Shown here in pieces: positions 12,895 to 27,084 of a DNA stretch of 32,000 nucleotides (the stretch's first letter is position 1; each line of letters starts with the position of its first letter). The DNA is taken from NCBI RefSeq assembly GCF_034931625.1, contig NZ_JAYGGY010000091.1:20647-52646 (forward strand), read 5' to 3'. Under the pieces are notes generated by a model. That model searched no databases, had not been told where the DNA came from, and saw nothing but the letters and a program-made list of their open reading frames with translations. Position numbers and translations under genes: made by a program. The stretch comes from Anabaena cylindrica UHCC 0172. GTDB lineage: Bacteria > Cyanobacteriota > Cyanobacteriia > Cyanobacteriales > Nostocaceae.

Positions 12895-15654
12895 ATGGTT
12901 TCTATCCCTCCACTAAACCAGAGAGCAGGTATGTCTCAAGAAACCTTACTGCGTTGGATTACAAATCGCATCCGGCAGTCTTTAGAGTTGAAAGATATTA
13001 TCACAGCGACAACGGCGGAAGTTCAGTCTTTACTGGGAACTGACCGAGTAATGATTTACAAATTTCATGCTGATGGCAGTGGTCAGGTTATTGCTGAATC
13101 CATTTATGAAAATCGGATACCATCCTTATTGGGGTTGAATTTCCCTGCTGATGACATTCCGCCTCATGCGCGTGAAATGTTTATGAAGTCGCGGGTGCGT
13201 TCTGTCGTGAATGTTGATTCCAGGCAGATTGGTCAAAGTCCTCAGCGTGATATGGAAACAGGGGAAATTATTTCTGAAGAGATTCTTTACCGTTCAGTAG
13301 ATCCATGTCATGTGGAATATTTAACGGCTATGGGGGTTAAGTCTTCTGTAGTTGCGCCGATTATTCATGAAGATCAATTGTGGGGATTGTTAGTATCTCA
13401 TCATTCTGAAGCCCGTGATGTGGCAGAATATGAACTAGAAGCGATGCAGATGGTGGTAGAGCAGTTGTCTGTTGCGATCGCACAAAGTAATCTCCTCAAC
13501 CAGGCCCGTACCAAAGCCGAACGAGAAACCATTATCAACCGTATTGCTACCCTCCTCCATTCACTGCCAACAATTGTCTTACAGCCAGCTTTAGAAGCCA
13601 CAGTTGCTGCTTTTAATGGTGTTGGTGGCAGGTTATGCATCAGACACAATGCCTTTGACTTCCAACATAGTAGCTTTCAATCTTTAACAAAATGTTTAAT
13701 TCCTGGGAGCAATTGTCTTCGGCTTTATGTATGTGGACAGCAACCTGTTATTTCTGAACAAAATATATATCCACTGTTAGAGCAGTATAGCGTCTGGCAA
13801 GAACATTACAAATCTGGTCAATACGACATTTGGGCAATTTCTGATATCTACCAAAATTCTAATTTACGCATTGTCCAACTTGCTTTTAAACCTACAAAAA
13901 TCCGCAGCATTTTAATGATTCCCCTCCACTATCGACAAGAATTAGTGGGTTATTTAAGCATTTTTCGCAACGAAATAGACACAGAAACCCTTTGGGCTGG
14001 TAAATTTGACCCAGACAACAGACAACTTTATCCCCGTCTATCTTTTGACTTGTGGAGCGAATCTAAACAAGGACAAGCCCAAAAATGGACAAATGAAGAA
14101 ATTGAACTAGCTAGAGAAATTAGTAAACACTTTGCTTCTGCTATTCAGCAATATGAACTTTACCAACAGGTACAAAGTTTTAATGAAAATTTAGAAAAAC
14201 AAGTCCACAAGCGGACATTAGAAATGCAAAGGACTGCTGAACAACAACAAGCTGTATTTGGAGTTATTAACAAAATCCGCCAGTCTCTTGATACCGAGGC
14301 TATTTTTAAAACCACCACAAAGGAAGTTTGTCAATTAATCAAAGCAGATCGTGTTTCTGTTTATAAATTCAGTGCTGATTGGGGTGGGGCATTTGTGGGT
14401 GATTTTGAAGCTGCTAGTCCCAACTGGTTCAATGAATCTAAACTTGGTATTAATACAATTTGGAATGATACTTATTTACAAGACACTGAAGGAGGAAGAT
14501 ATCGTAATAATGAAACCTTTGCCGTAGATGATATCTACCAAATGGGATTTACACCCTGTCATGTCGATAATCTAGAACAGTTTCAAATTCATGCTTTTGT
14601 ATTAGCTCCTATTTTAATTAGAAAAAAACTTTGGGGTTTACTTTGTACTTATCAACATACAGGTCCGCGTCAATGGAAACCATCTGAAGTTAATTTTATC
14701 AGTCAGATCGCAGCGCAACTTGGAGTAGCAATTCAACAAGCTGAATTGTTGGTAAAAACTCAGCAACAAGCAGAACAACTCACACAAACTCTGCATGAAC
14801 TACAAGCTACTCAAACCCAACTTATTCAAACTGAGAAAATGTCTTCTTTAGGGCAACTTGTGGCAGGTGTAGCCCATGAAATTAATAATCCAGTTAACTT
14901 TATCTCTGGCAACCTCATTCATATCAATGAATATGCTGAAGACTTACTGAGTATGCTCAATCTCTATCAGCAAAAATGCCCAGAACCAAGCCAAGATATT
15001 TTAGAACTGGCAGAAGAATTAGATTTAGAATTTTTGATCAAAGATTTACCTAAAAGTTTATATTCCATGAAAATTGGAGTTGAGCGCATTCGGCAAATCG
15101 TCTTATCTTTGCGAAATTTCTCGCGACTTGATGAATCTGAAATGAAGGAAGTTAATATCCATGATGGCATTGATAGTACTTTGCTGATTTTGCAGCATCG
15201 GTTAAAAGCCAGACCTGAATTTCCTTGTATTAAAATAATTAAAGAATATAGTGATTTACCGTTAATAGAGTGTTATGCTGGGCAACTAAATCAAGTATTT
15301 ATGAATATTTTGAGTAATGCGATTGATGCCTTAGAAAGTTACAAAACATCCACCGCAGAAACTCCCACAATATGGAACATTACTATTTCTACTACTATTA
15401 AAGAAGTAAATAGCAATCTTAAAAATGTAGTGATTAGAATTAGTGACAATGGACCAGGAATGCCAGAAACTGTCAGGACAAGAATATTTGACCCATTTTT
15501 CACTACTAAGCCAGTAGGTAAAGGGACTGGCTTGGGGTTATCAATTAGCTATCAAATTGTGGTAGAAAAACACGGTGGTTTGTTGAAATGTAATTCGCAA
15601 CCAGATAGGGGTACAGAATTCTTGATTGAAATTCCAATTAAGCATTTGGTGTAA
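12895..15654 (+). CDS. Knotless-phytochrome (GAF-PHY) plus cyanobacteriochrome GAF sensor histidine kinase
   Basis: GAF1: FPADDIPPHAREMF and DPCHVEYLTAMGV (Cys138, tgt 13306-13308). PHY tongue motifs: LWAGKF, PRLSF, WSE. GAF3: IWNDTYLQDTEGGRY and TPCHVDNLEQFQ (Cys555, tgt 14557-14559). Kinase: H-box AHEINNP, N-box NILSNAIDAL, G1 DNGPGM, G2 GKGTGLGL. Confidence 0.88.
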   Translation: MVSIPPLNQRAGMSQETLLRWITNRIRQSLELKDIITATTAEVQSLLGTDRVMIYKFHADGSGQVIAESIYENRIPSLLGLNFPADDIPPHAREMFMKSRVRSVVNVDSRQIGQSPQRDMETGEIISEEILYRSVDPCHVEYLTAMGVKSSVVAPIIHEDQLWGLLVSHHSEARDVAEYELEAMQMVVEQLSVAIAQSNLLNQARTKAERETIINRIATLLHSLPTIVLQPALEATVAAFNGVGGRLCIRHNAFDFQHSSFQSLTKCLIPGSNCLRLYVCGQQPVISEQNIYPLLEQYSVWQEHYKSGQYDIWAISDIYQNSNLRIVQLAFKPTKIRSILMIPLHYRQELVGYLSIFRNEIDTETLWAGKFDPDNRQLYPRLSFDLWSESKQGQAQKWTNEEIELAREISKHFASAIQQYELYQQVQSFNENLEKQVHKRTLEMQRTAEQQQAVFGVINKIRQSLDTEAIFKTTTKEVCQLIKADRVSVYKFSADWGGAFVGDFEAASPNWFNESKLGINTIWNDTYLQDTEGGRYRNNETFAVDDIYQMGFTPCHVDNLEQFQIHAFVLAPILIRKKLWGLLCTYQHTGPRQWKPSEVNFISQIAAQLGVAIQQAELLVKTQQQAEQLTQTLHELQATQTQLIQTEKMSSLGQLVAGVAHEINNPVNFISGNLIHINEYAEDLLSMLNLYQQKCPEPSQDILELAEELDLEFLIKDLPKSLYSMKIGVERIRQIVLSLRNFSRLDESEMKEVNIHDGIDSTLLILQHRLKARPEFPCIKIIKEYSDLPLIECYAGQLNQVFMNILSNAIDALESYKTSTAETPTIWNITISTTIKEVNSNLKNVVIRISDNGPGMPETVRTRIFDPFFTTKPVGKGTGLGLSISYQIVVEKHGGLLKCNSQPDRGTEFLIEIPIKHLV

Positions 15655-15943: not shown

Positions 15944-17092
15944 CTAATTTCTCAGTTGTACAGGCATTGCTAAATAAGTCATTTTTAAACCACCTAAAGG
16001 CGTAAAAATTACTGGAGTTAAGCTTTGATTTAAGTGCATTTGAATTTCTGTAGATGGTAACTCTTTCAAGCCTTCCATTAAATATTTAACATTAAAGGCA
16101 ATATCTATATCTTCACCAGATATTTGTGCTGACATTGATTCTGTGCCACTACCCACATCTTGAGCTTCACAAGATAGGGTAATTTCTTGATTGGCGTTAT
16201 CAATGCTGACTTTGACAATATTATTTTTCTGGTCAGCTAACACAGCAATTCGCTCTAAGGTGCTGATAAATTGTCGCCGTTCTAATGTTACTTGTCGCTC
16301 AAATTGACGGGGTATTAGTTGGCGATAAGCGGGATATTGACCTTCTAAAGTGCGGCTAGTTAAACGTTGATTTTGCCAAGCAAATACAACTTGACCTTGA
16401 TCAAAATATAAGGCTACAGTTTCTTCTGATGAGCTATGAGCTAACATTCTTTGCAGTTCGCGTAATGCTCTTGCTGGTACTGTGACTTCTAGTTGATTGC
16501 TACCATCTAGAGGACGCTCATTAGTGGTTTCCAGCACAGCTAGGCGATGTCCGTCCGTAGCTGCAAATTCTAAAGTATCTTCTTTAACTGTTAGATGTAC
16601 GCCGGTGAGGACTTGTTTAGTTTCATCTGCGCTGGTAGCGAATAATGAACCGCGTAAGCCTTCAATGAGTGCAGCGGTGGTGAGTTGAATGGCTTCAGAA
16701 TTTTCAATGATTGGTAATTCGGGAAATTCTTCTGCTCCCATAGCGCGGACTTGATACTTGCCGTTTTTGGGTTTGAGGGTGACTATTAAGCCTTCTCCGG
16801 TAGAGTCTGCTGATTCGTCATCTAGGGTGATTTCGCCTTCTGGAAGACGAGAGGTGATATCTACAAGTAGTCTAGCAGGAAGTGCGATCGCTCCCCCTTC
16901 AATTACATCGGCACTAAAACTGCTACGGATACCCAAGCTGAGATCAAAGGCTGTTAAGCTAACTTGGTTAGTTTGAGCATCGGCTTGTAGCAGTATATTG
17001 GCAAGTATAGGATGAGTTGGCCTTGATGGTACTGCACGACTAACGAGTGAAAGATTGGTACTAAGATCGCTTTGAGCGCAAACTAATTTCAT
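15944..17092 (-). CDS. dnaN: DNA polymerase III subunit beta (sliding clamp)
   Basis: 382 aa, N-terminus MKLVCAQSDLSTNLSLVSRAVPSRPTHPILANILL, three-domain length, located next to the DnaA boxes and dnaA. Confidence 0.95.
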   Translation of the reverse strand: MKLVCAQSDLSTNLSLVSRAVPSRPTHPILANILLQADAQTNQVSLTAFDLSLGIRSSFSADVIEGGAIALPARLLVDITSRLPEGEITLDDESADSTGEGLIVTLKPKNGKYQVRAMGAEEFPELPIIENSEAIQLTTAALIEGLRGSLFATSADETKQVLTGVHLTVKEDTLEFAATDGHRLAVLETTNERPLDGSNQLEVTVPARALRELQRMLAHSSSEETVALYFDQGQVVFAWQNQRLTSRTLEGQYPAYRQLIPRQFERQVTLERRQFISTLERIAVLADQKNNIVKVSIDNANQEITLSCEAQDVGSGTESMSAQISGEDIDIAFNVKYLMEGLKELPSTEIQMHLNQSLTPVIFTPLGGLKMTYLAMPVQLRN

Positions 17093-17170
17093 ATAGCAGG
17101 GAACAGGGTTGAAAAAATAATCCTAACTTATTATCTTGCTCTAAGGACTAGGAATCTGGAGACTAGCATC

Positions 17171-17391
17171 TGTGGAAAACTTGTGGAAAACTAGGCTGGT
17201 TTTTCCACAGAGTAATTATACTCAAGAGAATTTACTGGAAAAATCTTGACGTTTTCCACAGTTTTTTCCACAAAAGGTAATTATTTCTCCACAATTGTAG
17301 TTAAATTTAACAATTTTTTATACTTAGCTTAATATTGCTGCTGAAATACTCAAATATCAAGACTATCAGTTTGGCTGTTGGTTGTGGAAAA
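17171..17391. other. Candidate oriC: cluster of cyanobacterial-type DnaA boxes (TTTTCCACA)
   Basis: Perfect 9-mers at 17171-17179, 17182-17190 and 17383-17391 (as tgtggaaaa), and at 17201-17209, 17252-17260 and 17264-17272 (as ttttccaca). One-mismatch box ttctccaca at 17285-17293. An AT-rich stretch at about 17294-17360 lies inside the cluster. Confidence 0.8.
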
Positions 17392-17446
17392 CATTGTTAA
17401 TTCGTAATTCTTAATTTTATCCTCTACCCTTCTGCTTCCTCTGCCT

Positions 17447-17561
17447 TATTTTTGAGAACGACTATTCATGTGAATGCGATCGCTGCGCTCGCCGTATCCC
17501 TTACGGAACCGTAGGAAAGACATCGCTCAATTGGCGTAAAGTTGGGATTAAAGTCCTGTCT
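17447..17561 (-). pseudogene. Displaced duplicate of the last 72 nt of dnaA (including the stop), with a 43-nt insertion
   Basis: 17447-17484 matches 18783-18820 at 37/38 positions. 17528-17561 matches 18821-18854 at 30/34. The extra 43 nt (17485-17527) are absent from dnaA. Confidence 0.8.
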
Positions 17562-17599
17562 CTTGGCGCTAAACCATAACTCCTTTGATTTGTAAATAG

Positions 17600-18559
17600 C
17601 TATTTTGTAAACCTATTTAATAAATCTGCACGAGATAAATTTAAAAGTAAGGGAGTAAATTCTTCCCTAGACATGGTAATTACTTGATCAATAATTTTCA
17701 CCAACTCAGGATCAATTTGTCCAAAACGTACTTGCAAAATACTTTCAACCATAGCGCGACGTTCTCTTTGTATCCCTCTATCAATTCCTATTAATTCTCC
17801 TTCTTGTCGCCCTTCTTGTCGTCCTTGTTGCCTTTGTTCTTCTTTGAGTTCTTCTAATAATTGTTGATACATTTCTGATAATTTCATAATCAACTCCTGA
17901 TCATCTTGATCAATATCTTTTTCTTTTTGTTGACGTGCTGATAACATCGCAATTAGGTCATGTACTAATTTTATAACATTCTCCAAGAATGGATTATTAT
18001 TAGCTAGTGCTTCTAATTCTTCCACTGCTTGTCTTTGTACCTTCCCTCTACCTAATACCCTCAAAAACAGTGTTTCTGGTGTACTTGGTAATTGATGTAT
18101 GACCACAACGCCAGTTTTTAACACTTTCCCCAGGAAATAAACTCCTTGACCCCATGTTTCTATATCTACAGTAGCATTACAACCTGCTAGAATGTCTTCT
18201 GATGCAGTCGGAGTGAATATCCATAAATGCGGTAGTTCGGTTTCATTAATTCGCGTATCGTTGCGTTTATATTTTCTTTCTGTTTCTGCATGGATGTCAA
18301 ATAGTTTACCCATGCAACTACGAATTTCACTTTTGCTGACTGCATTACGGAATGGTTCAAATATTACTGAGGCTGCATAAGTCCCCATTTTTCCTAACAG
18401 TCCTAATTCTTCTATATTTTCAGGAGATGTAGGAGTAAAAAATACGTCAATTTGTCTCACTTCTGAAGTGATATCCTTACTCATCTCTACTTGGCCGTAA
18501 GGTGTGAAGAGTTCTGTCAGATATTGTTTAGAAAATTGGTCATGGATAAAGCGTGTCAT
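17600..18559 (-). CDS. Rpn-family / PD-(D/E)XK-like putative recombination nuclease (DUF2887/DUF4351-type cyanobacterial protein)
   Basis: N-terminal HDQFSKQYLTEL...EVRQIDVFF pattern, central charged coiled coil (QRQQGRQEGRQEG) and a C-terminal DUF4351-like ILQVRFGQIDPELVKIIDQV...LLNLSRADLLNRF. gagga lies 4 nt upstream of the ATG. Confidence 0.6.
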   Translation of the reverse strand: MTRFIHDQFSKQYLTELFTPYGQVEMSKDITSEVRQIDVFFTPTSPENIEELGLLGKMGTYAASVIFEPFRNAVSKSEIRSCMGKLFDIHAETERKYKRNDTRINETELPHLWIFTPTASEDILAGCNATVDIETWGQGVYFLGKVLKTGVVVIHQLPSTPETLFLRVLGRGKVQRQAVEELEALANNNPFLENVIKLVHDLIAMLSARQQKEKDIDQDDQELIMKLSEMYQQLLEELKEEQRQQGRQEGRQEGELIGIDRGIQRERRAMVESILQVRFGQIDPELVKIIDQVITMSREEFTPLLLNLSRADLLNRFTK

Positions 18560-18781
18560 TTTTCCTCAATTTACAAAGATTGTGGCAAATTATAGCCATA
18601 ACATAAGGTGTCAATTCTAGAGTATCTTTTTTTGACCCTTAAATCCCCCCAATCTGAGGGACTTTGAAAATTCTTTTCCCCTCATAATCGAGAATTAGGT
18701 ATGGAGTGGAACTTTTGCAGGAAGTCTAAGAAATATCTCTAAAAGGGTAAGATTTTCAGATATCCTCATCCTCATAAACTC

Positions 18782-20161
18782 CTATTTTTGAGAACGACTA
18801 TTCATGTGGATGCGATCGCTCAATTGGCGTATAGTTTGAATTAAAGTCTTGTCTGTCTCTAGCAATTGGGTAATCTTCTCGCAAGAATACATCACCGTTG
18901 TATGGTCTTTACCACCAAACTCCTCACCAATTCTCGGTAAACTCAAGCCTGTATGTTGTCGCATTAAATACATTCCTATCTGCCTAGCCCAACTAATTTC
19001 TCGTTTGCGGGAATTACTTTTTAAGTCTTCAATGGAAATATCAAAAGTCTCCCCTATCACTTTTAAAATTACCTCTGGTGTCACTTCTAGCTTTTGATTA
19101 GAAGCTCCTAAAACTGGGGTAATATTTTCCACAGTCATAGCTAAACCCCAAATAGAAATATAAGCTAAAGCTCGAATTAAAGCCCCTTCCAACTCCCGAA
19201 TATTAGAAGTATAATTACAAGCAATATATTCAACTACATCTCTAGGTAAACGAATATTTTCATACTCAGCTTTTTTTTGTAAAATTGCCATTCTGGTTTC
19301 TAAATCAGGGGATTGAATATCTGCAATCAACCCCATCGAAAACCGTGAACACAGCCGTTCTTGCAAACTAGGAATCTGATTAGGAGGACGGTCAGAAGCA
19401 ATGACAACTTGTTTGCCAGACTCATGTAAAGTATTAAAAGTATGAAAAAACTCTTCTTGAGTATATTCCTTCCCTTCCAAAAACTGAATATCATCAACTA
19501 ACAAAACATCAGCAGCCCGATAATGCTCCCGAAAACTTTGCATACTATCATTACGAATAGCAGTAATTAAATCATTAGTAAACTGCTCAGTCGAAACATA
19601 AAATATTTTAGAATTAGGATAAATTTCCCAACGATAATTACCAATAGCTTGCATTAAATGAGTTTTACCTAAACCCACACCACCGCATAAAAATAAAGGA
19701 TTAAATTCCCTGCCTGGATATTCTGCCACTGCCAAAGAAGCCGCATGAGCCATCCGATTATTAGCACCAACCACAAACCTTGAAAAAACGTACTTGGGAT
19801 TTAATTCTGTAGTTTTTTGTTGATTTTTGGATACATTGGGGAAAATAGGATTAACTGCTGGCAATTCCCAAGCAACTTCTTGTTTACCCAATGGAGAAAC
19901 TTCATCACCTTGAGCAACAGTAATGTAAATTTCTACTGGATAACCCAAAATATCTTGCACAACATGAGCGATCGTATTGATGTAATATTTCTGGAGCCAA
20001 TTGCGAGCAAAAGGGTTAGGAGTCCGAATGACCAAGCAATTATTTTCTAATTGCTCTGCACTAGCAGTTTTAATCCAAGTTTCAAAGGTGGGACGGGATA
20101 GCTCTAGCTGTAAGCGCTCTAGCACCTGACTCCACAGACTGTCAATGGGAATTTCCATCAT
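18782..20161 (-). CDS. dnaA: Chromosomal replication initiator protein DnaA
   Basis: Walker [11 protein letters not shown], Walker B LLVDDIQF, and a C-terminal DNA-binding domain with [15 protein letters not shown]. 459 aa. Confidence 0.95.
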
Positions 20162-20298
20162 CTACCACCTTTGCTGCTAATTGCCACAATAGAAGATATG
20201 AGCCAGCAATAATTTAACTTTAAACTGTAATTAATCTGGCATAAACCAGGTAGCCAATATCCTATCACCCAGTGACTAACACGGAGAGAAAAGTACAC

Positions 20299-21510
20299 AT
20301 GACGACAAATAATCATAAACTAGTGCAACAAAGAAGAGGGTGGATGCTAATCACTGGATTAGCCGCAGTGCTGCTGAGTAGCTGTTCTAGCCTCAATAGT
20401 AAGACCTTAGAGGCTGAACAAAGTATTACTCAAGCCCAAAATACCACCACACCGACTTCGGTATTTGCACCCCCTCCTATCATCGCTGCCACAGGTGATC
20501 CTAATTTTGTAGTTGGAGTAGTACAAAAGGTAGGAGGTGCAGTTGTTCGTATTGATTCTGCTAGAACTGTTACATCTCAAGCACCAGATCAATTTTCAGA
20601 TCCATTTTTTCGTAGGTTTGACAGAGTACCACAGGAAAGACAAAGGGTAGAAAGGGGTAGTGGTTCTGGATTTATTATTAATTCTGCCGGTCAAATTTTG
20701 ACTAATGCTCACGTAGTTGATGGTGCTGACCAAGTTACAGTTACACTCAAAGACGGTCGGACTTTTGACGGTAAAGTATTGGGAGAAGACCAAGTTACAG
20801 ATGTGGCAGTCATCAAAATTGAAGCCAATAATCTACCTACCTTAGCTTTAGGCAATTCCAATGTGTTGCAACCAGGAGAAGCAGTCATTGCCATTGGTAA
20901 TCCTTTAGGTTTAAATAATACGGTCACATCTGGAATTATCAGTGCTACAGAACGTTCTAGTAGTGCTATTGGTGCTAGTGATAAGCGTGTGGATTATTTA
21001 CAAACAGATGCAGCAATTAACCCTGGTAACTCTGGCGGACCATTGCTAAATGCTCGTGGTGAAGTGATAGGAATGAACACAGCAATTATCCAAGGCGCTC
21101 AAGGTTTAGGATTTGCAATTCCTATTAATACTGTGCAGAAAATTTCCCAAGAATTAATTGCTACAGGTAAAGTAGATCATCCATATTTAGGCGTGGAAAT
21201 GATAACGCTAACACCAGAAATCAAAGAAAGAATTCTTAGTAGATCTCGCGGACGAGTAAATTTAGTTGCCGAGCAAGGAGTTTTATTAGTTAGGATAGTT
21301 TCTAACTCGCCAGCTGCAATTGCTGGATTCAAACCAGGGGATGTAATCAAAACTATTAACAATCAACCTGTGAATAAAGTGGAGGAAGTCCAAAAGCTTG
21401 TAGAAAATACCAAAATTGGTAATCCTCTCCAAATTCAAGTAGAACGTGATGGAAAAGTGGCTCAATTAATAGTTAAGCCTGCGCCTTTACCAGCGCGTTC
21501 TGAAAACTAA
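20299..21510 (+). CDS. HtrA/Deg-family trypsin-like serine protease with one PDZ domain
   Basis: Catalytic residues in NAHVV, DVAVIKI and GNSGGPL, with a C-terminal PDZ (GFKPGDVIKTINNQPV). ATG 20299 has ggagag 11 nt upstream; GTG 20272 is an alternative start. The N-terminal LLSSC looks lipobox-like. Confidence 0.88.
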   Translation: MTTNNHKLVQQRRGWMLITGLAAVLLSSCSSLNSKTLEAEQSITQAQNTTTPTSVFAPPPIIAATGDPNFVVGVVQKVGGAVVRIDSARTVTSQAPDQFSDPFFRRFDRVPQERQRVERGSGSGFIINSAGQILTNAHVVDGADQVTVTLKDGRTFDGKVLGEDQVTDVAVIKIEANNLPTLALGNSNVLQPGEAVIAIGNPLGLNNTVTSGIISATERSSSAIGASDKRVDYLQTDAAINPGNSGGPLLNARGEVIGMNTAIIQGAQGLGFAIPINTVQKISQELIATGKVDHPYLGVEMITLTPEIKERILSRSRGRVNLVAEQGVLLVRIVSNSPAAIAGFKPGDVIKTINNQPVNKVEEVQKLVENTKIGNPLQIQVERDGKVAQLIVKPAPLPARSEN

Positions 21511-21561
21511 TTGTTTATTTATTTTTCTGCATTTACCATTACCTAAATAATTTTTTCTTCC

Positions 21562-22083
21562 ATGATTGAGACAGTACCAATTATTCAATTAGGCAATCCG
21601 ATATTACGCCAAAAATCAGCTTGGGTGGAAAATATTCACAGTGAGCATATCCAAAAACTCATTGATGATTTAATAGCTACTGTTTCTCAGGCGAATGGTG
21701 TGGGAATTGCCGCACCCCAAGTAGCAGAATCTCATCGTTTATTTATTGTTGCTTCTCGTCCCAATTCCAGATATCCTGATGCCCCAGAAATGGAACCAAC
21801 GGCGATGATTAATCCAAAAATTATTGCTTGTTCAACTGAGGTTGTTAAAGGTTGGGAAGGTTGTTTAAGTGTTCCGGGAATTAGAGGTTTAGTTCCTAGA
21901 TATAGGACAATTGAAATTGAATATACTGACCGCTATGGTCAAATTAAAAAGCAAGAGTTATCAGATTTTATTGCTCGTATTTTTCAACATGAGTATGATC
22001 ATCTTGAAGGGAAAGTATTTTTAGATAGGGTAGAATCTACTTATGAATTAATGACAGAAGCTGAATTCCAAAAGCGGATATAG
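21562..22083 (+). CDS. def: Peptide deformylase
   Basis: All three signature motifs are present: GVGIAAPQV, EGCLSVPG and QHEYDHLEG. 173 aa. Confidence 0.93.
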   Translation: MIETVPIIQLGNPILRQKSAWVENIHSEHIQKLIDDLIATVSQANGVGIAAPQVAESHRLFIVASRPNSRYPDAPEMEPTAMINPKIIACSTEVVKGWEGCLSVPGIRGLVPRYRTIEIEYTDRYGQIKKQELSDFIARIFQHEYDHLEGKVFLDRVESTYELMTEAEFQKRI

Positions 22084-22115: not shown

Positions 22116-22378
22116 TGTCTGAATCAGGATTTCCAGGATTTAAGGATTTTCAGGATGAAGTCTGGGATTTGATCACCTTTTTCCCAATTACCCATTACCA
22201 ATTACCAATTACCAACCTCAACTAGATAACTAGCAACTTGGGTTAATACAGCTTGGGATAATTCGTAATTATTAAAACACCCCACCCCCAACCCCGCAAG
22301 CGAGGAGGGGACTATGATGTATTTCATGCAAGTGCATACCGCTATATCCTTAAATCCTGGAAATCCTGATTCTGACAG
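22116..22378. repeat. 33-bp inverted repeat pair enclosing STRR and GC-hairpin repeats (MITE-like composite)
   Basis: ctgtctgaatcaggatttccaggatttaaggat (22116-22148) is complementary to atccttaaatcctggaaatcctgattctgacag (22346-22378), with 1 mismatch. Related arms occur at 28113-28155, 28375-28417 and 28535-28582. Confidence 0.7.
22185..22219. repeat. STRR heptamer array (caattac family)
   Basis: caattac ccattac caattac caattac caacctc. Confidence 0.85.
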
Positions 22379-22424
22379 TTATACTATAATATGGACAAAA
22401 ATGATACTTTAAAACATATCACAG

Positions 22425-22865
22425 ATGGAACCATTAACTACTGGTGCTGTTGCTCTTGCAACTGTACTGGCTACCAAAGCACTAGAAAAAATTGGCGAAA
22501 ACATCGGAGATGGTTTATCAAACAAGACTAAGCAGTTTTTGGAATCGTTGAAAAAACAATCTTCTGCAACAGTCACCGCTATTGAAAAAGCACCACAACA
22601 ACCCCTCGATTATGGCAAGGCTGTACTGGAAATAGAAGCCGCAGCTAAAACAGACCCTCACGTTAATCAGTCTATCCAGGAATTAGCCCAGTTAACAGAA
22701 ACTAACCCACCGGCGAATTTAGCGGAAATTCTCAAAGAGATTCAAGCAGCTTTTGCAAACTCTCAACACCCCCAGGCGACAATTTTTAATCAAAACATCC
22801 AAAAAGCTATCAACGCCGCGCAAAATCAAAATATTGACCAAAGAGGAAGTACGTTTAATATTTGA
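22425..22865 (+). CDS. 146-aa helical protein; probably the detached N-terminal (effector/adaptor-like) module of the downstream NB-ARC protein
   Basis: ATG start, hydrophobic first helix MEPLTTGAVALATVLATKAL, a Q/N-rich tail, ending at TGA 22863-22865. It is in the same frame as 22980-25076 with no other stop between them. Confidence 0.55.
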   Translation: MEPLTTGAVALATVLATKALEKIGENIGDGLSNKTKQFLESLKKQSSATVTAIEKAPQQPLDYGKAVLEIEAAAKTDPHVNQSIQELAQLTETNPPANLAEILKEIQAAFANSQHPQATIFNQNIQKAINAAQNQNIDQRGSTFNI

Positions 22866-22979
22866 CAGCACTCGTCTGACGGGGAACGGACAAAGTTAAC
22901 CCCCACTAAACATATACCCTATCGTGGTTCTAGGCATTTTGTTGGACGAGAAACAGAACTGACAACTATCCATGAAGAT

Positions 22980-25076
22980 TTGCGACGGGGAAATTATGTA
23001 GCGATAACTGGAATGGGTGGTTTGGGTAAAACGGAATTAGCCACCCAATATGCAACACAATATCAAGATGAGTATGGGGGCATAATTTGGTTTAATGCTA
23101 GAGAAAGCAGACTCGCAGCGGAAGTATTGGAGTTTTTTAGCTTACAGTTGGGTTTAGAAATTCCCCAAGAACGAGGAGGACAACTGCTAAATTTACAAGA
23201 ACAGGTGGCTTGGTGTTGGTTGCAATATCCACAGACAGATTTACCTGTTTTAATTGTTGTTGATGATTTAACTGATTTAGCACATCTGCGAGAAATTGTC
23301 CCCAGTCTGCCACGGTTTCGGGTGTTGATAACAACTCGGCTGCAAAATTTAGATCCTAATTTTATTCAACAACTACTTTTAGATGTTCTCTCACCAGAAA
23401 AAGCATTAGAACTTTTACAAAAGCAACTGGGGGAAAAAGATAAACGAGTTTTCAAAGAACCAGAAGCTGTAACTGCAATATGTAAATCTTTAGAATATTT
23501 GCCTTTGGGGATGATTTTAGTTGGTGGTTATTTATTAAATGACCCTGGACTGTCTCTAACTGAGATGTTGGCACGGTTGCAAAAAGGTAAGTTAGCAGAA
23601 GCAGCTTTACAAGAACGGGAAACTATCAATAAAACTCAACTGGGAGTTAAAGCCGCATTTAATTTAACTTGGGAAACACTAGATAATCAAGCTCAACAAC
23701 TGGGCGCATTTTTAAGTTTATTTTCTCCTCAGTTGATTGTTTGGGATTTGGTAGTTGAGATAGTTAAGTTTGAAGTAGAAAATGAAGAGAAACAACTAAT
23801 TTGGACAGACGAAGAATTAAAAGCAGCAAAATTGCAACTTTATCAACGCAACTTATTACAACTGGCAGAATCACCAGAAGAAGCTTATAAAATACATAAT
23901 TTGGTGAGGTGGTTTTTGCAAGAACAGTTAGCCGAATACAGAGAAATGCAGCCAGTTTTAGAAAGAACTTTTATTAATCCGATGATAGCCCTTGCTCAAG
24001 CACTTTCTCAGTCACCCACCTCTGAAGATATTGGAAATTTTCAGTTTATTGTTTCTCATTGGGAAGCTTTGGGACAACGTTTAATAGATAATATAAAGGA
24101 AAAAACAGAAATAGAGGCCAATTTACCTGTATCCATCCTTACAGATGAGTTTATCTGGGTTTTTGTGGGGCTGGGCATATTTTACGAAAGAAAGGCATTA
24201 TATCAATTAGCAGAACCTTGGCGGAAGGGATGCGTAAAAGTTTACAAGGCGTTGTTTACAGGCAACCATCCTGATATTGCTGCAAGTTTGAACAATTTAG
24301 CATATCTATACGATAGCCAAGGGCGGTATGGTGAAGCCAAACCTCTCTATATTGATGCTTTGCGAATGTATAAGCGACTATTTACAGGCGACCATGCTGA
24401 TGTTGCTTCTAGTTTGAGCAATTTAGGCGTACTTTACCATAAGCAAGGGAAGTACAGTGAAGCCGAATCTCTCTACATTAAAGCTTTAGAGATGAGAAAG
24501 CGGCTATTTACAGGTGACTATCCTGATATTGCTAATAGCTTGAATAATTTAGCCTTACTCTACAAAAGTCAAGGGAAGTACATTGAAGCCAAACTTCTCT
24601 ACCTTGAGGCTTTAGAGATGAGAAAGCGGCTATTTACAGGCGACCATCCTGATGTTGCACAAAGCTTGAACAATTTAGCAGTATTCTACCATGAACAAAT
24701 GTGGTACAGTACAGCCGAACCTCTATACATTAAAGCTTTAGAGATGAGAAAGCGGCTATTTATAGGCGACCATCCTGATGTTGCTAATAGCTTGAATAAT
24801 TTAGCTGACCTCCACAAAAGTCAAGAGAATTACAGTGAAGCCAAACTTCTCTTCCTTGATGCTTTAGTTATGTTGGAACGGGTGTTAGGAGTTAATCATC
24901 CCCATACAATAACCGTTCGAGAAAATTTACAACTTTTGCAACAGCAACTCACACCTCGTTCTGCTCCTAAAACTCTGTTACGTGATCCATTAGCTATATT
25001 AGCTTTACCGTTCTATCGTTTGTGGTTATTGATTAAACGTATTGTGATCTTTTGCTTGCGTTTGTTCCGACATTAA
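22980..25076 (+). CDS. NB-ARC (STAND) NTPase with TPR repeats, NLR-like; homology extends upstream to 22866, so the gene is interrupted or read through
   Basis: Walker A GMGGLGKT (23010-23033), Walker B LIVVDDL, RVLITTR and the LPLG motif. About 5.5 kinesin-light-chain-type TPR units and a hydrophobic/basic C-tail. The conserved lead-in RHFVGRETEL lies before the first available start (TTG 22980). Confidence 0.8.
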   Translation: MRRGNYVAITGMGGLGKTELATQYATQYQDEYGGIIWFNARESRLAAEVLEFFSLQLGLEIPQERGGQLLNLQEQVAWCWLQYPQTDLPVLIVVDDLTDLAHLREIVPSLPRFRVLITTRLQNLDPNFIQQLLLDVLSPEKALELLQKQLGEKDKRVFKEPEAVTAICKSLEYLPLGMILVGGYLLNDPGLSLTEMLARLQKGKLAEAALQERETINKTQLGVKAAFNLTWETLDNQAQQLGAFLSLFSPQLIVWDLVVEIVKFEVENEEKQLIWTDEELKAAKLQLYQRNLLQLAESPEEAYKIHNLVRWFLQEQLAEYREMQPVLERTFINPMIALAQALSQSPTSEDIGNFQFIVSHWEALGQRLIDNIKEKTEIEANLPVSILTDEFIWVFVGLGIFYERKALYQLAEPWRKGCVKVYKALFTGNHPDIAASLNNLAYLYDSQGRYGEAKPLYIDALRMYKRLFTGDHADVASSLSNLGVLYHKQGKYSEAESLYIKALEMRKRLFTGDYPDIANSLNNLALLYKSQGKYIEAKLLYLEALEMRKRLFTGDHPDVAQSLNNLAVFYHEQMWYSTAEPLYIKALEMRKRLFIGDHPDVANSLNNLADLHKSQENYSEAKLLFLDALVMLERVLGVNHPHTITVRENLQLLQQQLTPRSAPKTLLRDPLAILALPFYRLWLLIKRIVIFCLRLFRH
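24243..24872 (+). repeat. Five tandem 126-bp (42-aa) TPR units with near-identical scaffold segments
   Basis: Units start at 24243, 24369, 24495, 24621 and 24747. agaaagcggctatttacaggcgaccatcctgatgttgc recurs almost unchanged in units 3-5, while the central part of each unit differs. Confidence 0.9.
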
Positions 25077-25355: not shown

Positions 25356-26429
25356 ATGAAAAAGCTAATTAATCAAGCCGATGACTTTGTTAGAGAAAGT
25401 TTAGCAGGAATGGCTGCTGCTCATGGCGATTTAATTAAGGTCAATTATGAGCCGACTTTTGTTTATCGAACCGATGCACCTATACAGGGAAAGGTAGCAA
25501 TTATTTCTGGGGGTGGTAGTGGTCATGAACCTATGCACGCTGGCTTTGTCGGTATGGGAATGCTTGATGCGGCTTGTCCTGGGGAAGTTTTCACCTCACC
25601 AACTCCTGACCAAATGTTAGCAGCAGCGCAACAAGTAGATGGTGGTGCGGGTATTATTTATATCGTTAAAAATTATAGCGGTGATTTGATGAATTTTGAA
25701 ATGGCGACGGAGTTAGCCAGAAGTGAAGGCATCCGCACGCTCAATATTATCATTGATGATGATGTGGCGGTGAAAGATAGTCTGTATACCCAAGGGAGAA
25801 GAGGTGTAGGTGTAACAGTGCTGGCGGAAAAAATTTGTGGTGCAGCAGCGGCAGCAGGTTATGATTTGCAGCAGGTAGCAGATTTGTGCAGAAAGGTAAA
25901 TCTGCATGGACGTAGTGTAGGAGTTGCGCTCAGTTCTTGTACAGTTCCAGCTAGGGGAACACCGACTTTTGCTTTGGGGGATAACGAGATAGAATTAGGG
26001 ATTGGCATTCATGGAGAACCGGGAATAGCCAGGGTTTCTATGCAATCAGCAGATGAGATTACAGAGATTTTAGTGCGATCGCTCATTGATGATCTTCCCT
26101 ATAATCGCACAGTTAGGGAGTGGAATGAAGCCACAGAGGGATGGGTAGATGTGGAACTGTTAAATAAACCCCTGCAAAAAGGCGATCGCATTCTGGCTTT
26201 TGTTAATAGTATGGGTGGGACTCCCATTTCTGAACTCTATCTCGTCTATCGCAAACTAGCAGAAATCTGTGCCAGGGAAGGATTGCAAATCGTGCGAAAT
26301 CTAATTGGCCCCTACATTACATCATTAGAAATGCAAGGTTGCTCCATTACTCTGCTAAAATTAGACGACGAAATGCTCAAGTTATGGGATGCACCAGTCA
26401 AAACAGCAAGTTTACGCTGGGGAGTGTGA
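25356..26429 (+). CDS. dhaK: Dihydroxyacetone kinase, DhaK (substrate-binding) subunit
   Basis: GGGSGHEP motif and GIHGEPG with the substrate-binding His. 357 aa. Confidence 0.92.
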
Positions 26430-26430
26430 G

Positions 26431-27084
26431 ATGGTTACTCAGGTGCAGATTGTCGAATGGTTACACGTATTTTCTTCTGTGATTGAGCATCATAAGGAAG
26501 ATTTGACGGAATTAGATGCGGCTATTGGTGATGCTGATCATGGTATCAATATGGATCGTGGGTTTAAAAAGGTCAACAGTATTTTACCGAGTATTGCCGG
26601 CAAGGACATCAGCAGCATTTTCAAAAACGTCGGTATGACTTTAATTTCCAGTATTGGCGGTGCGAGTGGACCTCTGTATGGAACTTGGTTTTTAAAAGCT
26701 AGTTCGGCTACTGCTGGGAAACAAGAATTATCTCAAGACGATGTCTTAAAGTTACTTCAATCTGGTTTAGATGGAGTGCTGGAACGGGGGAAGGCGCAGT
26801 TGGGAGATAAGACAATGGTGGATGTACTTTCCCCGGCTGTAGTGGCTTTTGAGCAAGCTGTGGGTGAAGGGATGATGGGGACTGTGGCAGCCTTGGAAGT
26901 GGCTGTTTCGGCTGCGGAACAAGGGTTAAAGGCAACTATACCCATGTTAGCAAAGAAAGGTAGAGCGAGTTATTTGGGCGATCGCAGTATAGGACATCAA
27001 GATCCCGGTGGAACTTCTGCTTATTGGATGTTGCGGAGTTTGTTGGAAGTACTAAAAGGCTCTAATGCAATTCGTAATTCGTAA
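26431..27084 (+). CDS. dhaL: Dihydroxyacetone kinase, DhaL (nucleotide-binding) subunit
   Basis: DAAIGDADHGINM motif. ATG 26431 lies 1 nt after the dhaK stop; the longer 26389 start would overlap dhaK by 41 nt. Confidence 0.9.
   Translation: MVTQVQIVEWLHVFSSVIEHHKEDLTELDAAIGDADHGINMDRGFKKVNSILPSIAGKDISSIFKNVGMTLISSIGGASGPLYGTWFLKASSATAGKQELSQDDVLKLLQSGLDGVLERGKAQLGDKTMVDVLSPAVVAFEQAVGEGMMGTVAALEVAVSAAEQGLKATIPMLAKKGRASYLGDRSIGHQDPGGTSAYWMLRSLLEVLKGSNAIRNS

Follow-up and report, generated by a model that had tools for sequence, protein, structure and literature searches.

Analysis of a 32,000-nt stretch of the Anabaena cylindrica UHCC 0172 genome (hereafter the window; all positions are window positions on the + strand) points to a locus in which programmed readthrough of a UGA codon yields an effector and its sensor from one open reading frame (ORF), a reading to which we give a probability of about 70%. 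The locus (22425-25076) begins with a 146-amino-acid (aa) N-terminal module (N-module) and continues, past the stop, into a NOD-like receptor (NLR) with an NB-ARC NTPase domain and a TPR sensor. The first ORF runs from ATG 22425 to TGA 22863-65, with C (22866) as the +4 base. Read in one frame, the locus comprises 884 codons with this TGA as the only internal stop and TAA 25074-76 as the terminal one, and the frame downstream of the TGA (22866-25076) is open for 736 codons. A homologue search with the 146-aa product returned a 100% identical protein (P0001).

An earlier note, made from the sequence, had described two ORFs in one frame split only by this TGA, and one-frame translation confirms this. 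Its four-part fusion of about 883 aa with about 5.5 TPR units also stands, with an NB-ARC match (PF00931, E 7e-14, residues 37-224 past the stop), five full TPR units plus a partial sixth (TPR_10, E 1e-57; TPR_12 was also matched), and a hydrophobic/basic tail. The note had left pseudogene, error, and programmed readthrough side by side, and regarded a low level of fusion beside an abundant free N-module as conceivable; the first two fail, for family and locus alike, against a TGA, a +4 C, and a frame-0 continuation conserved in three orders, and the third is what we infer. Absent from that note were an RNA structure downstream of the UGA (a hairpin and probable pseudoknot), the pairing of one junction with unrelated sensors, and the natural TGG replacements of the stop, all reported here.

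The in-frame UGA is conserved in identity, context, and frame

The control set comprised 49 further ORFs (250 aa or longer) ending in TGA, drawn from all DNA retrieved. Past their TGA, the next in-frame stop comes after a median of 10 codons and after 49 at most (n=49), so the 736-codon continuation is not a chance occurrence. Within the window, 2 of 21 long ORFs end in TGA, both with short post-stop frames; TGA thus ends other genes normally under the standard code, and global reassignment of UGA is ruled out.

The N-module has 505 homologues in Nostocales, Xenococcaceae, and Gloeothece PCC 7424, nearly all of them stand-alone proteins of about 146 aa with the same C-terminus, down to 55% identity. 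A total of 80 genomic loci were retrieved, and each was read through the first stop of its N-module. Including the window, 52 N-module loci end in TGA, and frame 0 remains open for 384-1230 codons in 44 of these 52; every Walker A motif found in the continuations lies in frame 0. A sister subfamily of 132-aa proteins ends mostly in TAA or TAG, and its NLR is encoded separately, from an ATG of its own that may lie in frame 0, 1, or 2.

All 50 class-A junctions carry TGA, with C (41), G (8), or A (1) at the +4 position. The same codon is TGA in 17 of 17 metagenome matches (see below), two further covariance-model matches, PCC 7120, and PCC 7424, or about 70 junctions in total. The orthologue alignment that the earlier note had proposed shows a conserved split, the sole exception being a sense codon (TGG) in Dolichospermum. 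Among the 50 loci, the codon after TGA is CTG in 21, CTA in 13, and GTG in 6-7, the others being CCA, CCG, CAG (as in the window), GAA, and ATC; CUG and CUA together account for 34 of 50. No stop-codon context is known to be leakier than UGA followed by C, or UGA-CUA (reviewed in PMC7026636), in agreement with what the earlier note had said of UGA-C.

Stop, TGA identity, +4 C, and frame-0 continuation are kept over Nostocales, Pleurocapsales/Chroococcales, and Oscillatoriales. The same arrangement is found in a finished PCC 7120-like chromosome (CP183817.1), whose 146-aa product is identical to BAB74487.1 of PCC 7120, and in the finished genome of Gloeothece citriformis PCC 7424. Judged by this distribution, the stop is ancient and selected, and is neither a pseudogene lesion nor a sequencing error.

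In the closest orthologue, from a Dolichospermum metagenome-assembled genome (L001), TGG stands in place of TGA and the RNA element is intact, but a TAA follows further on. Independently, a partial Dolichospermum protein (P0121) reads ...GSTFNF-W-QHSSDGERTKLNPTKY...FVGRETEL...GMGGLGKT without interruption. Among the 120 matches listed in a junction-profile search for sense-codon fused forms, only P0121 spans the junction, and the long relatives recovered in an exhaustive profile search are other fusions without the element. Near-cognate decoding of UGA would be expected to insert tryptophan. Sense variants are confined to a single lineage in about 70 junctions; this rarity suggests selection on the stop and a need for termination as well.

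A conserved RNA element follows the stop

Anchored on the TGA, the junctions align without gaps and give the consensus TGA CTG NAG YCG YCY GAA SGG GAA CGG RYA AAG TTA AMT CCC. Third codon positions within this element are conserved at least as well as first and second ones, and the variable sites (+6, +12, +18, +27, +28, and +37) are first or second positions. Substitutions were counted over 14 loci of the window's NLR subfamily. In codons 1-13 past the stop, which correspond to the element, synonymous and nonsynonymous changes stand at 60:383 and differences per site at codon positions 1/2/3 are flat (0.188/0.129/0.164), which indicates constraint as nucleic acid, not as peptide. Codons 15-38, located 5′ of any start, show 413:436 changes and 0.145/0.086/0.254 differences per site, close to the undisputed coding sequence of codons 39-70 (614:471; 0.12/0.061/0.255), and are therefore constrained as translated protein.

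RNAalifold alone predicts a 5-bp hairpin (stem 1, +11..+15 with +24..+28) that begins 8 nt past the UGA, a spacing that matches known recoding stimulators. Across 62 sequences, 98.7% of the cells of this stem are paired, versus at most 55% in slide controls. One pair occurs as UA:35/CG:25/UG:2, another changes from GC to CG, and a U-G pair becomes U-A in PCC 7120. About 30 G-U pairs are also found, which would be mismatches on the opposite strand, and the structure is thus assigned to the sense RNA. From this comparative evidence, stem 1 is regarded as established. The loop sequence GGGA can pair further with a conserved UCCC (+38..+41) to form stem 2, with 93.5% of cells paired in the 62 sequences (slide controls at most 55%) and one compensatory change from GC to AU (L024); this stem, and with it an H-type pseudoknot with an A-rich third loop, is probable. 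Loop 3 of the window (22892-22900, AAAGUUAAC) is unpaired, A-rich, and conserved like the stems (88-94% per position), and could be engaged in a minor-groove triplex with stem 1 or in ribosome contacts. A mini-palindrome spanning the stop (GACUNNAGUC) was rejected as a stem: its loop would be too short, and C to G changes at +3 have no compensating partner.

A metagenome scan with the pattern AGTCGNCNGAACGGGAACGGNNAAAG, which required neither the stop nor the N-module, returned 17 loci, all of which have a TGA exactly 7 nt upstream, a frame-0 MEP... N-module before it, and an NLR after it. Their N-modules represent several subfamilies with differing Q/N/G-rich C-termini. A covariance model of the element (R1) identified 67 sites in about 733 kb of retrieved DNA, and 0 in two-gene loci. 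An Rfam search of positions 22300-23300 at a permissive threshold returned only chance matches, placing the element in no Rfam family, and viral contigs, searched for evidence of a cyanophage origin, contained 0 matches.

The NLR frame extends upstream of any canonical start

The earliest in-frame ATG, GTG, or TTG past the TGA is TTG 22980 (codon 39), and the Walker A motif GMGGLGKT (23010-23033) follows 10 codons later. As the earlier note had pointed out, the FVGRExEL lead-in lies 5′ of this first start: FVGRETEL occupies 22938-22961 (FVGR is codon 25), the TTG sits 14 codons past its beginning, and the Pfam AAA_16 match begins at post-stop residue 25, which is FVGRE. Annotation of PCC 7120-like genomes likewise starts the NLR at the TTG. 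The earlier note had named as contrary evidence orthologues that consistently show a bona fide start and ribosome-binding site for a shorter NB-ARC protein; this is not the pattern seen, as most loci have no canonical start 5′ of the conserved FVGR motif.

Family membership of the N-module

The N-module has no match in Pfam or PADLOC, and searches of the PDB by sequence and by Foldseek with an AlphaFold2 (AF2) model returned only designed helical bundles or hits with E > 1. The AF2 model is all-helical with 7 helices (pLDDT 78). The module shows the features that define Bell proteins: these are short (about 120-140 aa), comprise roughly 100 aa of all-helical domain, begin with a hydrophobic helix, and carry an acidic second or third residue. 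Residues M1 E2 P3 L4 T5 are nearly invariant in A1/A4 N-modules, and the start of the module in the window, MEPLT..., conforms to the 'MEPIS' pattern reported in helix 1 of Bell, Hell, and Avast2 (Ibarlosa 2024, bioRxiv 10.1101/2024.11.07.622273).

Residues 118-146 qualify by homology as a candidate bacterial amyloid signalling sequence (BASS), a Q/N/G-rich motif of about 25 aa belonging to a recognised family. In A1 they align with 'IEKIVNFAQRDINxxxQNISI' (IEKIVNFAQRDIN...) variants, which are bass_05 all_07 in Table S2 of Dyrka et al. (Dyrka 2020, bioRxiv 10.1101/2020.01.06.895854). The sister 132-aa proteins end in ...NLEKLADKIGQVVMPGGTGNIQNMSF, the bass_05 KLADKIG... motif, and the NLR gene behind them starts with MPEDSGKFADKIGAYAAPGGQVNIGTQ...; these sister loci (KLADKIGQVVMPGGTGNI / KFADKIGAYAAPGG...) are BASS5 Bell/NLR pairs of the same Table S2, examples of such pairs being BAZ70468.1/BAZ70469.1 and AFW94442.1/AFW94441.1. 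The sister loci thereby bear out the guess of a Bell-like N-module in the earlier note. Sequence similarity and these relatives place the N-module in the Bell/BASS5 amyloid-signalling family.

The adjacent collinear partner of such systems (NB-ARC or NACHT with TPR, WD, or HEAT repeats) is present as the NB-ARC and TPR regions directly downstream, and likewise in related loci. A separately initiated NLR with its own N-terminal BASS copy is not: the 38 post-stop codons contain no copy and there is no start 5′ of FVGR, whereas the NLRs of two-gene relatives do carry their own N-terminal BASS motif. Near-identical NB-ARC domains in two-gene loci (P0131, L046, L048, and L059) have both their own start and an N-terminal BASS motif. 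Since these close paralogues carry BASS at the N-terminus, the readthrough N-terminus would occupy the place of that motif. As the frame is laid out, the window NLR can gain a BASS motif, or translation from its conserved N-terminus, only via the UGA. By these features the locus is a variant and not a canonical Bell/NLR pair. Experimental evidence for amyloid or prion formation, NLR-to-Bell templating, and cell killing is confined to BASS1, BASS3, and BASS11 (Dyrka 2020; Ibarlosa 2024).

The junction is reused with different sensors

Frame-0 continuations past the TGA encode non-homologous parts, including NB-ARC-TPR, other NB-ARC, NACHT-HEAT with NCC-H or NCAB1, another NACHT, CHASE2, FGE-sulfatase, and TPR only. 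In this set of loci, one N-module and junction is repeatedly combined with different predicted sensors, in frame across the TGA.

Two contigs carry two complete systems in tandem (L081, 3995-4063 and 9639-9707; L084, 6321-6389 and 10399-10467), each consisting of N-module, TGA, element, and NLR, with differing C-terminal motifs in the N-modules. In three PCC 7120-like strains (L098, L099, and L100), the post-TGA frame from 4942 spans 800, 968, and 842 codons at the same locus, and the number of 42-aa TPR units is polymorphic among them, which we liken to the hypervariable repeats of fungal NLRs. Bell-type N-modules are also fused directly to dynamin-like GTPases (G..GAGKST) or HEAT-repeat proteins (P0239, P0275, P0283, and P0208), with neither BASS motif nor element.

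Proposed programmed readthrough and its alternatives

The features expected of programmed readthrough occur together at this locus. These are an in-frame stop ahead of a long conserved ORF without its own initiation site, a conserved stop identity in a leaky context, a 3′ RNA structure at about 8 nt with covariation (stem 1; stem 2 is less secure), and sense-codon orthologues that give a continuous protein (TGG in L001 and P0121; rare).

Several observations weigh on the other side. In single-sequence folding, the window hairpin alone (22863-22912) is no stabler than shuffled sequences (z = 0.12), so the case for structure is comparative. Stem 2 draws on high pairing and a single compensatory change, and the main covariation of stem 1 (UA/CG) tracks two NLR subfamilies and may reflect few independent events. 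Two loci, L016 (Okeania) and L020 (Dapis), keep TGA-C and frame 0 without the hairpin element, and three others (L080, L026, and L036) retain it only partly; a different or degenerate signal may operate in these five. GTG directly after TGA in 7 loci could support coupled re-initiation, and visibly decaying copies exist (L005, L053 (= L089), L093, and L001). No Foldseek match of the N-module to the PDB is significant, so its putative membership in the Bell fold is assigned from sequence and family evidence. In addition, a literature search found no precedent for structure-stimulated programmed readthrough in a cellular bacterial gene.

In L016 (junction 3862) and L020 (junction 4439), the post-TGA frames comprise 49 and 180 codons, with a transmembrane helix and a TPR-like region. 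Brasilonema angustatum has a decaying copy with an extra in-frame stop (TGA CTG TAG), in L029 both the P-loop and stem 2 are broken, and in P0127 (Scytonema) a deletion fuses the first 15 N-module residues to the linker.

Separate translation of two proteins is an unlikely account, but one with several points in its favour. The NLR would initiate at the codon adjoining the UGA by termination-reinitiation (GTG, CTG, etc.), at TTG 22980, or at a non-canonical codon; the role of the hairpin would lie in coupling, pausing, or the processing of mRNA, and frame 0 would be a by-product of a start that abuts the stop. GTG follows the TGA in 7 of 50 loci and CTG in 21 of 50, gene callers sometimes start at the post-stop codon (P0122), and two-gene Bell and NLR genes are often overlapped or coupled (Dyrka 2020). 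However, the CAG of the window, CTA (13 loci), CCA, CCG, GAA, and ATC are not start codons, no conserved Shine-Dalgarno sequence is placed for the post-stop codon, and the TGG variants form a continuous ORF. A start at TTG 22980 would drop the conserved FVGRETEL, which evolves as coding sequence, and would leave an NLR without a BASS motif for communication with the effector, unlike every two-gene relative. Dedicated decoding of the UGA is improbable, whether as selenocysteine, with the hairpin as a selenocysteine insertion sequence (SECIS), or through a genome-encoded suppressor or a tRNA with a 4-bp anticodon stem. A hairpin immediately 3′ of an in-frame UGA does resemble a bacterial SECIS (PMC7026636), and some bacteria do have tRNA-Trp variants able to read UGA (PMC13092985), but the codon falls in an inter-domain linker instead of a redox centre, homologues with a sense codon have Trp (TGG) where Cys would be expected, and the apical loop AASGGGAA starts with AA instead of the G of SECIS-type loops. 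Moreover, the cyanobacteria of an early survey (Prochlorococcus and Synechococcus only) were non-selenocysteine-decoding (PMC1273633), the element has no Rfam match, and a tRNA scan of the window found none.

Many unrelated C-terminal parts adjoin one and the same junction, genomes carry several paralogous loci each, tandem copies and frequent decay are seen, and two-gene NLRs share the 3′-terminal part of the element (KLTPTK / KLNPP), all of which would suit a 42-nt stretch acting mainly as a DNA-level recombination junction that shuffles N-modules and sensor cassettes, comparable to polymorphic-toxin borders. The TGA would then merely end the effector gene, with the downstream frames translated otherwise or kept as silent spares. 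We consider this to have little chance as the main explanation: such a site could work without a TGA in register and without frame 0, the compensatory changes and G-U pairs indicate a sense-strand RNA structure, and open frames of 400-1200 codons with coding-type substitution 5′ of any start argue that the cassettes are expressed through the junction. Recombination may nonetheless be compatible with readthrough as an added role. Loss of an NLR with an N-terminal Bell domain to a nonsense mutation in this strain, or an assembly error, is hardly credible; there is a single in-frame stop and some relatives are clearly decaying (L005, L053, and L001), but both halves are intact in the window and a same-codon TGA recurs in about 70 loci of three cyanobacterial orders, including the finished CP183817.1 and PCC 7424 sequences. 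A prfB-type +1 frameshift at UUU UGA C was ruled out, the downstream frame being 0.

Proposed mechanism

Under programmed readthrough, the locus would form a single translational unit of a Bell/BASS-NLR regulated cell-death system, probably with an antiphage or abortive-infection role. Most ribosomes would terminate at the UGA and release the 146-aa Bell-domain effector with its C-terminal BASS5-like motif, while a minority would decode the UGA, most likely as Trp via near-cognate tRNA-Trp. Readthrough would be aided by the weak UGA-C(UR) context, the hairpin 8 nt downstream, and its probable pseudoknot, which would stand at the mRNA entrance while the UGA is in the A site. The resulting Bell-BASS-NB-ARC-TPR product of about 883 aa would be a rare sensor. 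Triggering of its TPR region by a ligand would lead to NB-ARC oligomerisation and clustering of the BASS motifs, which would nucleate an amyloid fold and template the free effector. The converted effector would insert its N-terminal helix 1 into the membrane and attack it, and the Bell domain of the fusion may also act directly. These post-translational steps are proposed by analogy with the BASS and HET-S literature.

Among the release factors, only release factor 2 (RF2) recognises UGA. It is conceivable, though doubtful, that the readthrough level is a regulatory input and not a fixed leak, with termination efficiency acting as the infection or stress signal that arms or triggers an amyloid-amplified cell-death switch. 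Lowered RF2 activity or raised UGA decoding would then produce more Bell-NLR fusion, and candidate inputs would be phage-encoded suppressor tRNAs, recoded-stop phages, translational stress, and induced tRNA operons.

Locus layout and surroundings

Table 1 Features of the Bell-NLR locus in window coordinates
Feature	Position	Strand	Evidence
N-module ORF, 146 aa, Bell-type, all-helical, with C-terminal Q/N-rich motif; proposed termination product	22425..22862	+	ORF, homologues, AF2, family listing
N-terminal hydrophobic helix MEPLTTGAVALATVLATKAL, 'MEPIS'-type, acidic residue at position 2	22425..22484	+	Alignment
C-terminal BASS5-like motif ATIFNQNIQKAINAAQNQNIDQRGSTFNI, candidate amyloid signalling sequence	22776..22862	+	Alignment with bass_05 variants
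Conserved in-frame UGA, +4 C at 22866	22863..22865	+	Junction comparison
Element of ~42 nt, conserved at the nucleotide level	22863..22904	+	Codon-position statistics, covariance model
Stem 1 hairpin GUCUG/CGGAC, 22874-22878 with 22887-22891, loop 22879-22886	22874..22891	+	RNAalifold, covariation
Proposed stem 2 (H-type pseudoknot), GGGG 22881-22884 with CCCC 22901-22904; A-rich loop 3 22892-22900	22881..22904	+	Pairing across sequences
Linker and first NB-ARC/AAA_16 residues, including FVGRETEL 22938-22961; 5′ of any canonical start	22866..22979	+	Substitution pattern, Pfam
First canonical in-frame start (TTG) past the stop; gene callers' choice, truncates the conserved domain start	22980..22982	+	ORF scan
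NB-ARC NTPase domain, Walker A GMGGLGKT 23010-23033	22974..23537	+	Pfam PF00931
TPR_10/TPR_12 repeat sensor, five full 42-aa units and a partial sixth	24219..24950	+	Pfam, repeat coordinates
Hydrophobic/basic C-terminal tail and TAA stop	24978..25076	+	Translation

The hydrophobic/basic NLR tail (24978-25073, LRDPLAILALPFYRLWLLIKRIVIFCLRLFRH) follows the last partial TPR unit; it may be a functional membrane anchor or what is left of a truncated repeat. The neighbours of the locus (15944-22083 and 25356-27084) are housekeeping genes near the replication origin, encoding dnaN, dnaA, an HtrA-like protease, peptide deformylase, and DhaK/DhaL, and the surroundings include no recognisable defence island. 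A 919-aa phytochrome-like GAF/PHY histidine kinase (12895-15654) is encoded upstream of dnaN and has no relation to the readthrough finding.

Significance and comparison with known systems

Taken together, the locus is probably a Bell/BASS-NLR system expressed via the kind of recoding signal that viruses are known to use. Structure-stimulated readthrough has so far been textbook matter for RNA viruses and retroviruses. If the reading is true, this would be the first family-wide case of RNA-structure-stimulated programmed stop-codon readthrough in cellular bacterial genes, with a new class of cis-acting RNA that is not in Rfam. It would also explain the expression of a whole branch of cyanobacterial NLRs, now mis-annotated as N-terminally truncated proteins beside 146-aa "hypothetical proteins", and would add a third effector-sensor wiring to amyloid immune signalling, between two-gene and all-in-one systems, in which one ORF is used and the ribosome sets the stoichiometry. 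The system is testable in the model strain Nostoc/Anabaena PCC 7120 (BAB74487.1 and the downstream frame), and could give synthetic biology a small and portable bacterial readthrough cassette. A literature search on readthrough, recoding, Bell, NLR, and cyanobacteria found no earlier description of the arrangement.

The Bell/BASS5-NLR pairs (Dyrka 2020) share with the window the MEP... hydrophobic helix, the helical domain of about 100 aa, the C-terminal Q/N/G-rich motif, a collinear NB-ARC/TPR or NACHT partner directly downstream, and the same taxa. The window differs in that its NLR has no start codon or motif copy and lies in frame across a UGA with an RNA element; the published pair table has no 'DQRGS' motif type, and the paper is silent on stop codons and readthrough. 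The Bab/Agp BASS11 system of E. coli also has a Bell-type effector with a MEPIS-like helix 1 and amyloid templating by a partner, and provides experimental support for a cell-death, antiphage abortive-infection role (bioRxiv 10.1101/2024.11.07.622273), but it consists of two genes and proteins, its partner is not a recoding-fused NLR, and Bab has the shorter 'Babybell' fold.

In the Q-beta phage, bacterial ribosomes read UGA as Trp, and in murine leukaemia virus (MuLV) a pseudoknot lies about 8 nt past the stop; the window structure has a similar spacing. As in MuLV gag-pol (UAG with pseudoknot), Sindbis and other alphaviruses (UGA-C), and Q-beta coat/A1 (UGA, readthrough of about 5%), an abundant short and a rare extended product would result (PMC7026636). 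Here, by contrast, the proposed signal belongs to a cellular, chromosomal bacterial gene family, and the element is unrelated in sequence to the viral ones; B. subtilis SacB is the only bacterial readthrough example in the table of that review. The prfB gene (RF2), with CUU UGA C, shares a poor UGA-C termination signal and an RF2-dependent outcome (PMC5009743), although it uses a +1 frameshift and an upstream Shine-Dalgarno-like stimulator, whereas the window frame is 0 and the stimulator is 3′ of the stop.

The readthrough product would share its N-terminal effector, nucleotide-oligomerisation domain, and repeat sensor with all-in-one STAND/NLR proteins (Avs, bNACHT, and the Bell-NLR fusions in Dyrka 2020), and the comparison with Avs made in the earlier note holds for architecture but not for a PADLOC assignment: PADLOC returned no Avs or bNACHT match, only generic TPR and two weak candidate-system matches (E 1e-4 and 4e-3). 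The TGG variant would correspond to a constitutive fusion of this all-in-one type, and the window differs from such proteins in that its effector would also be released alone.

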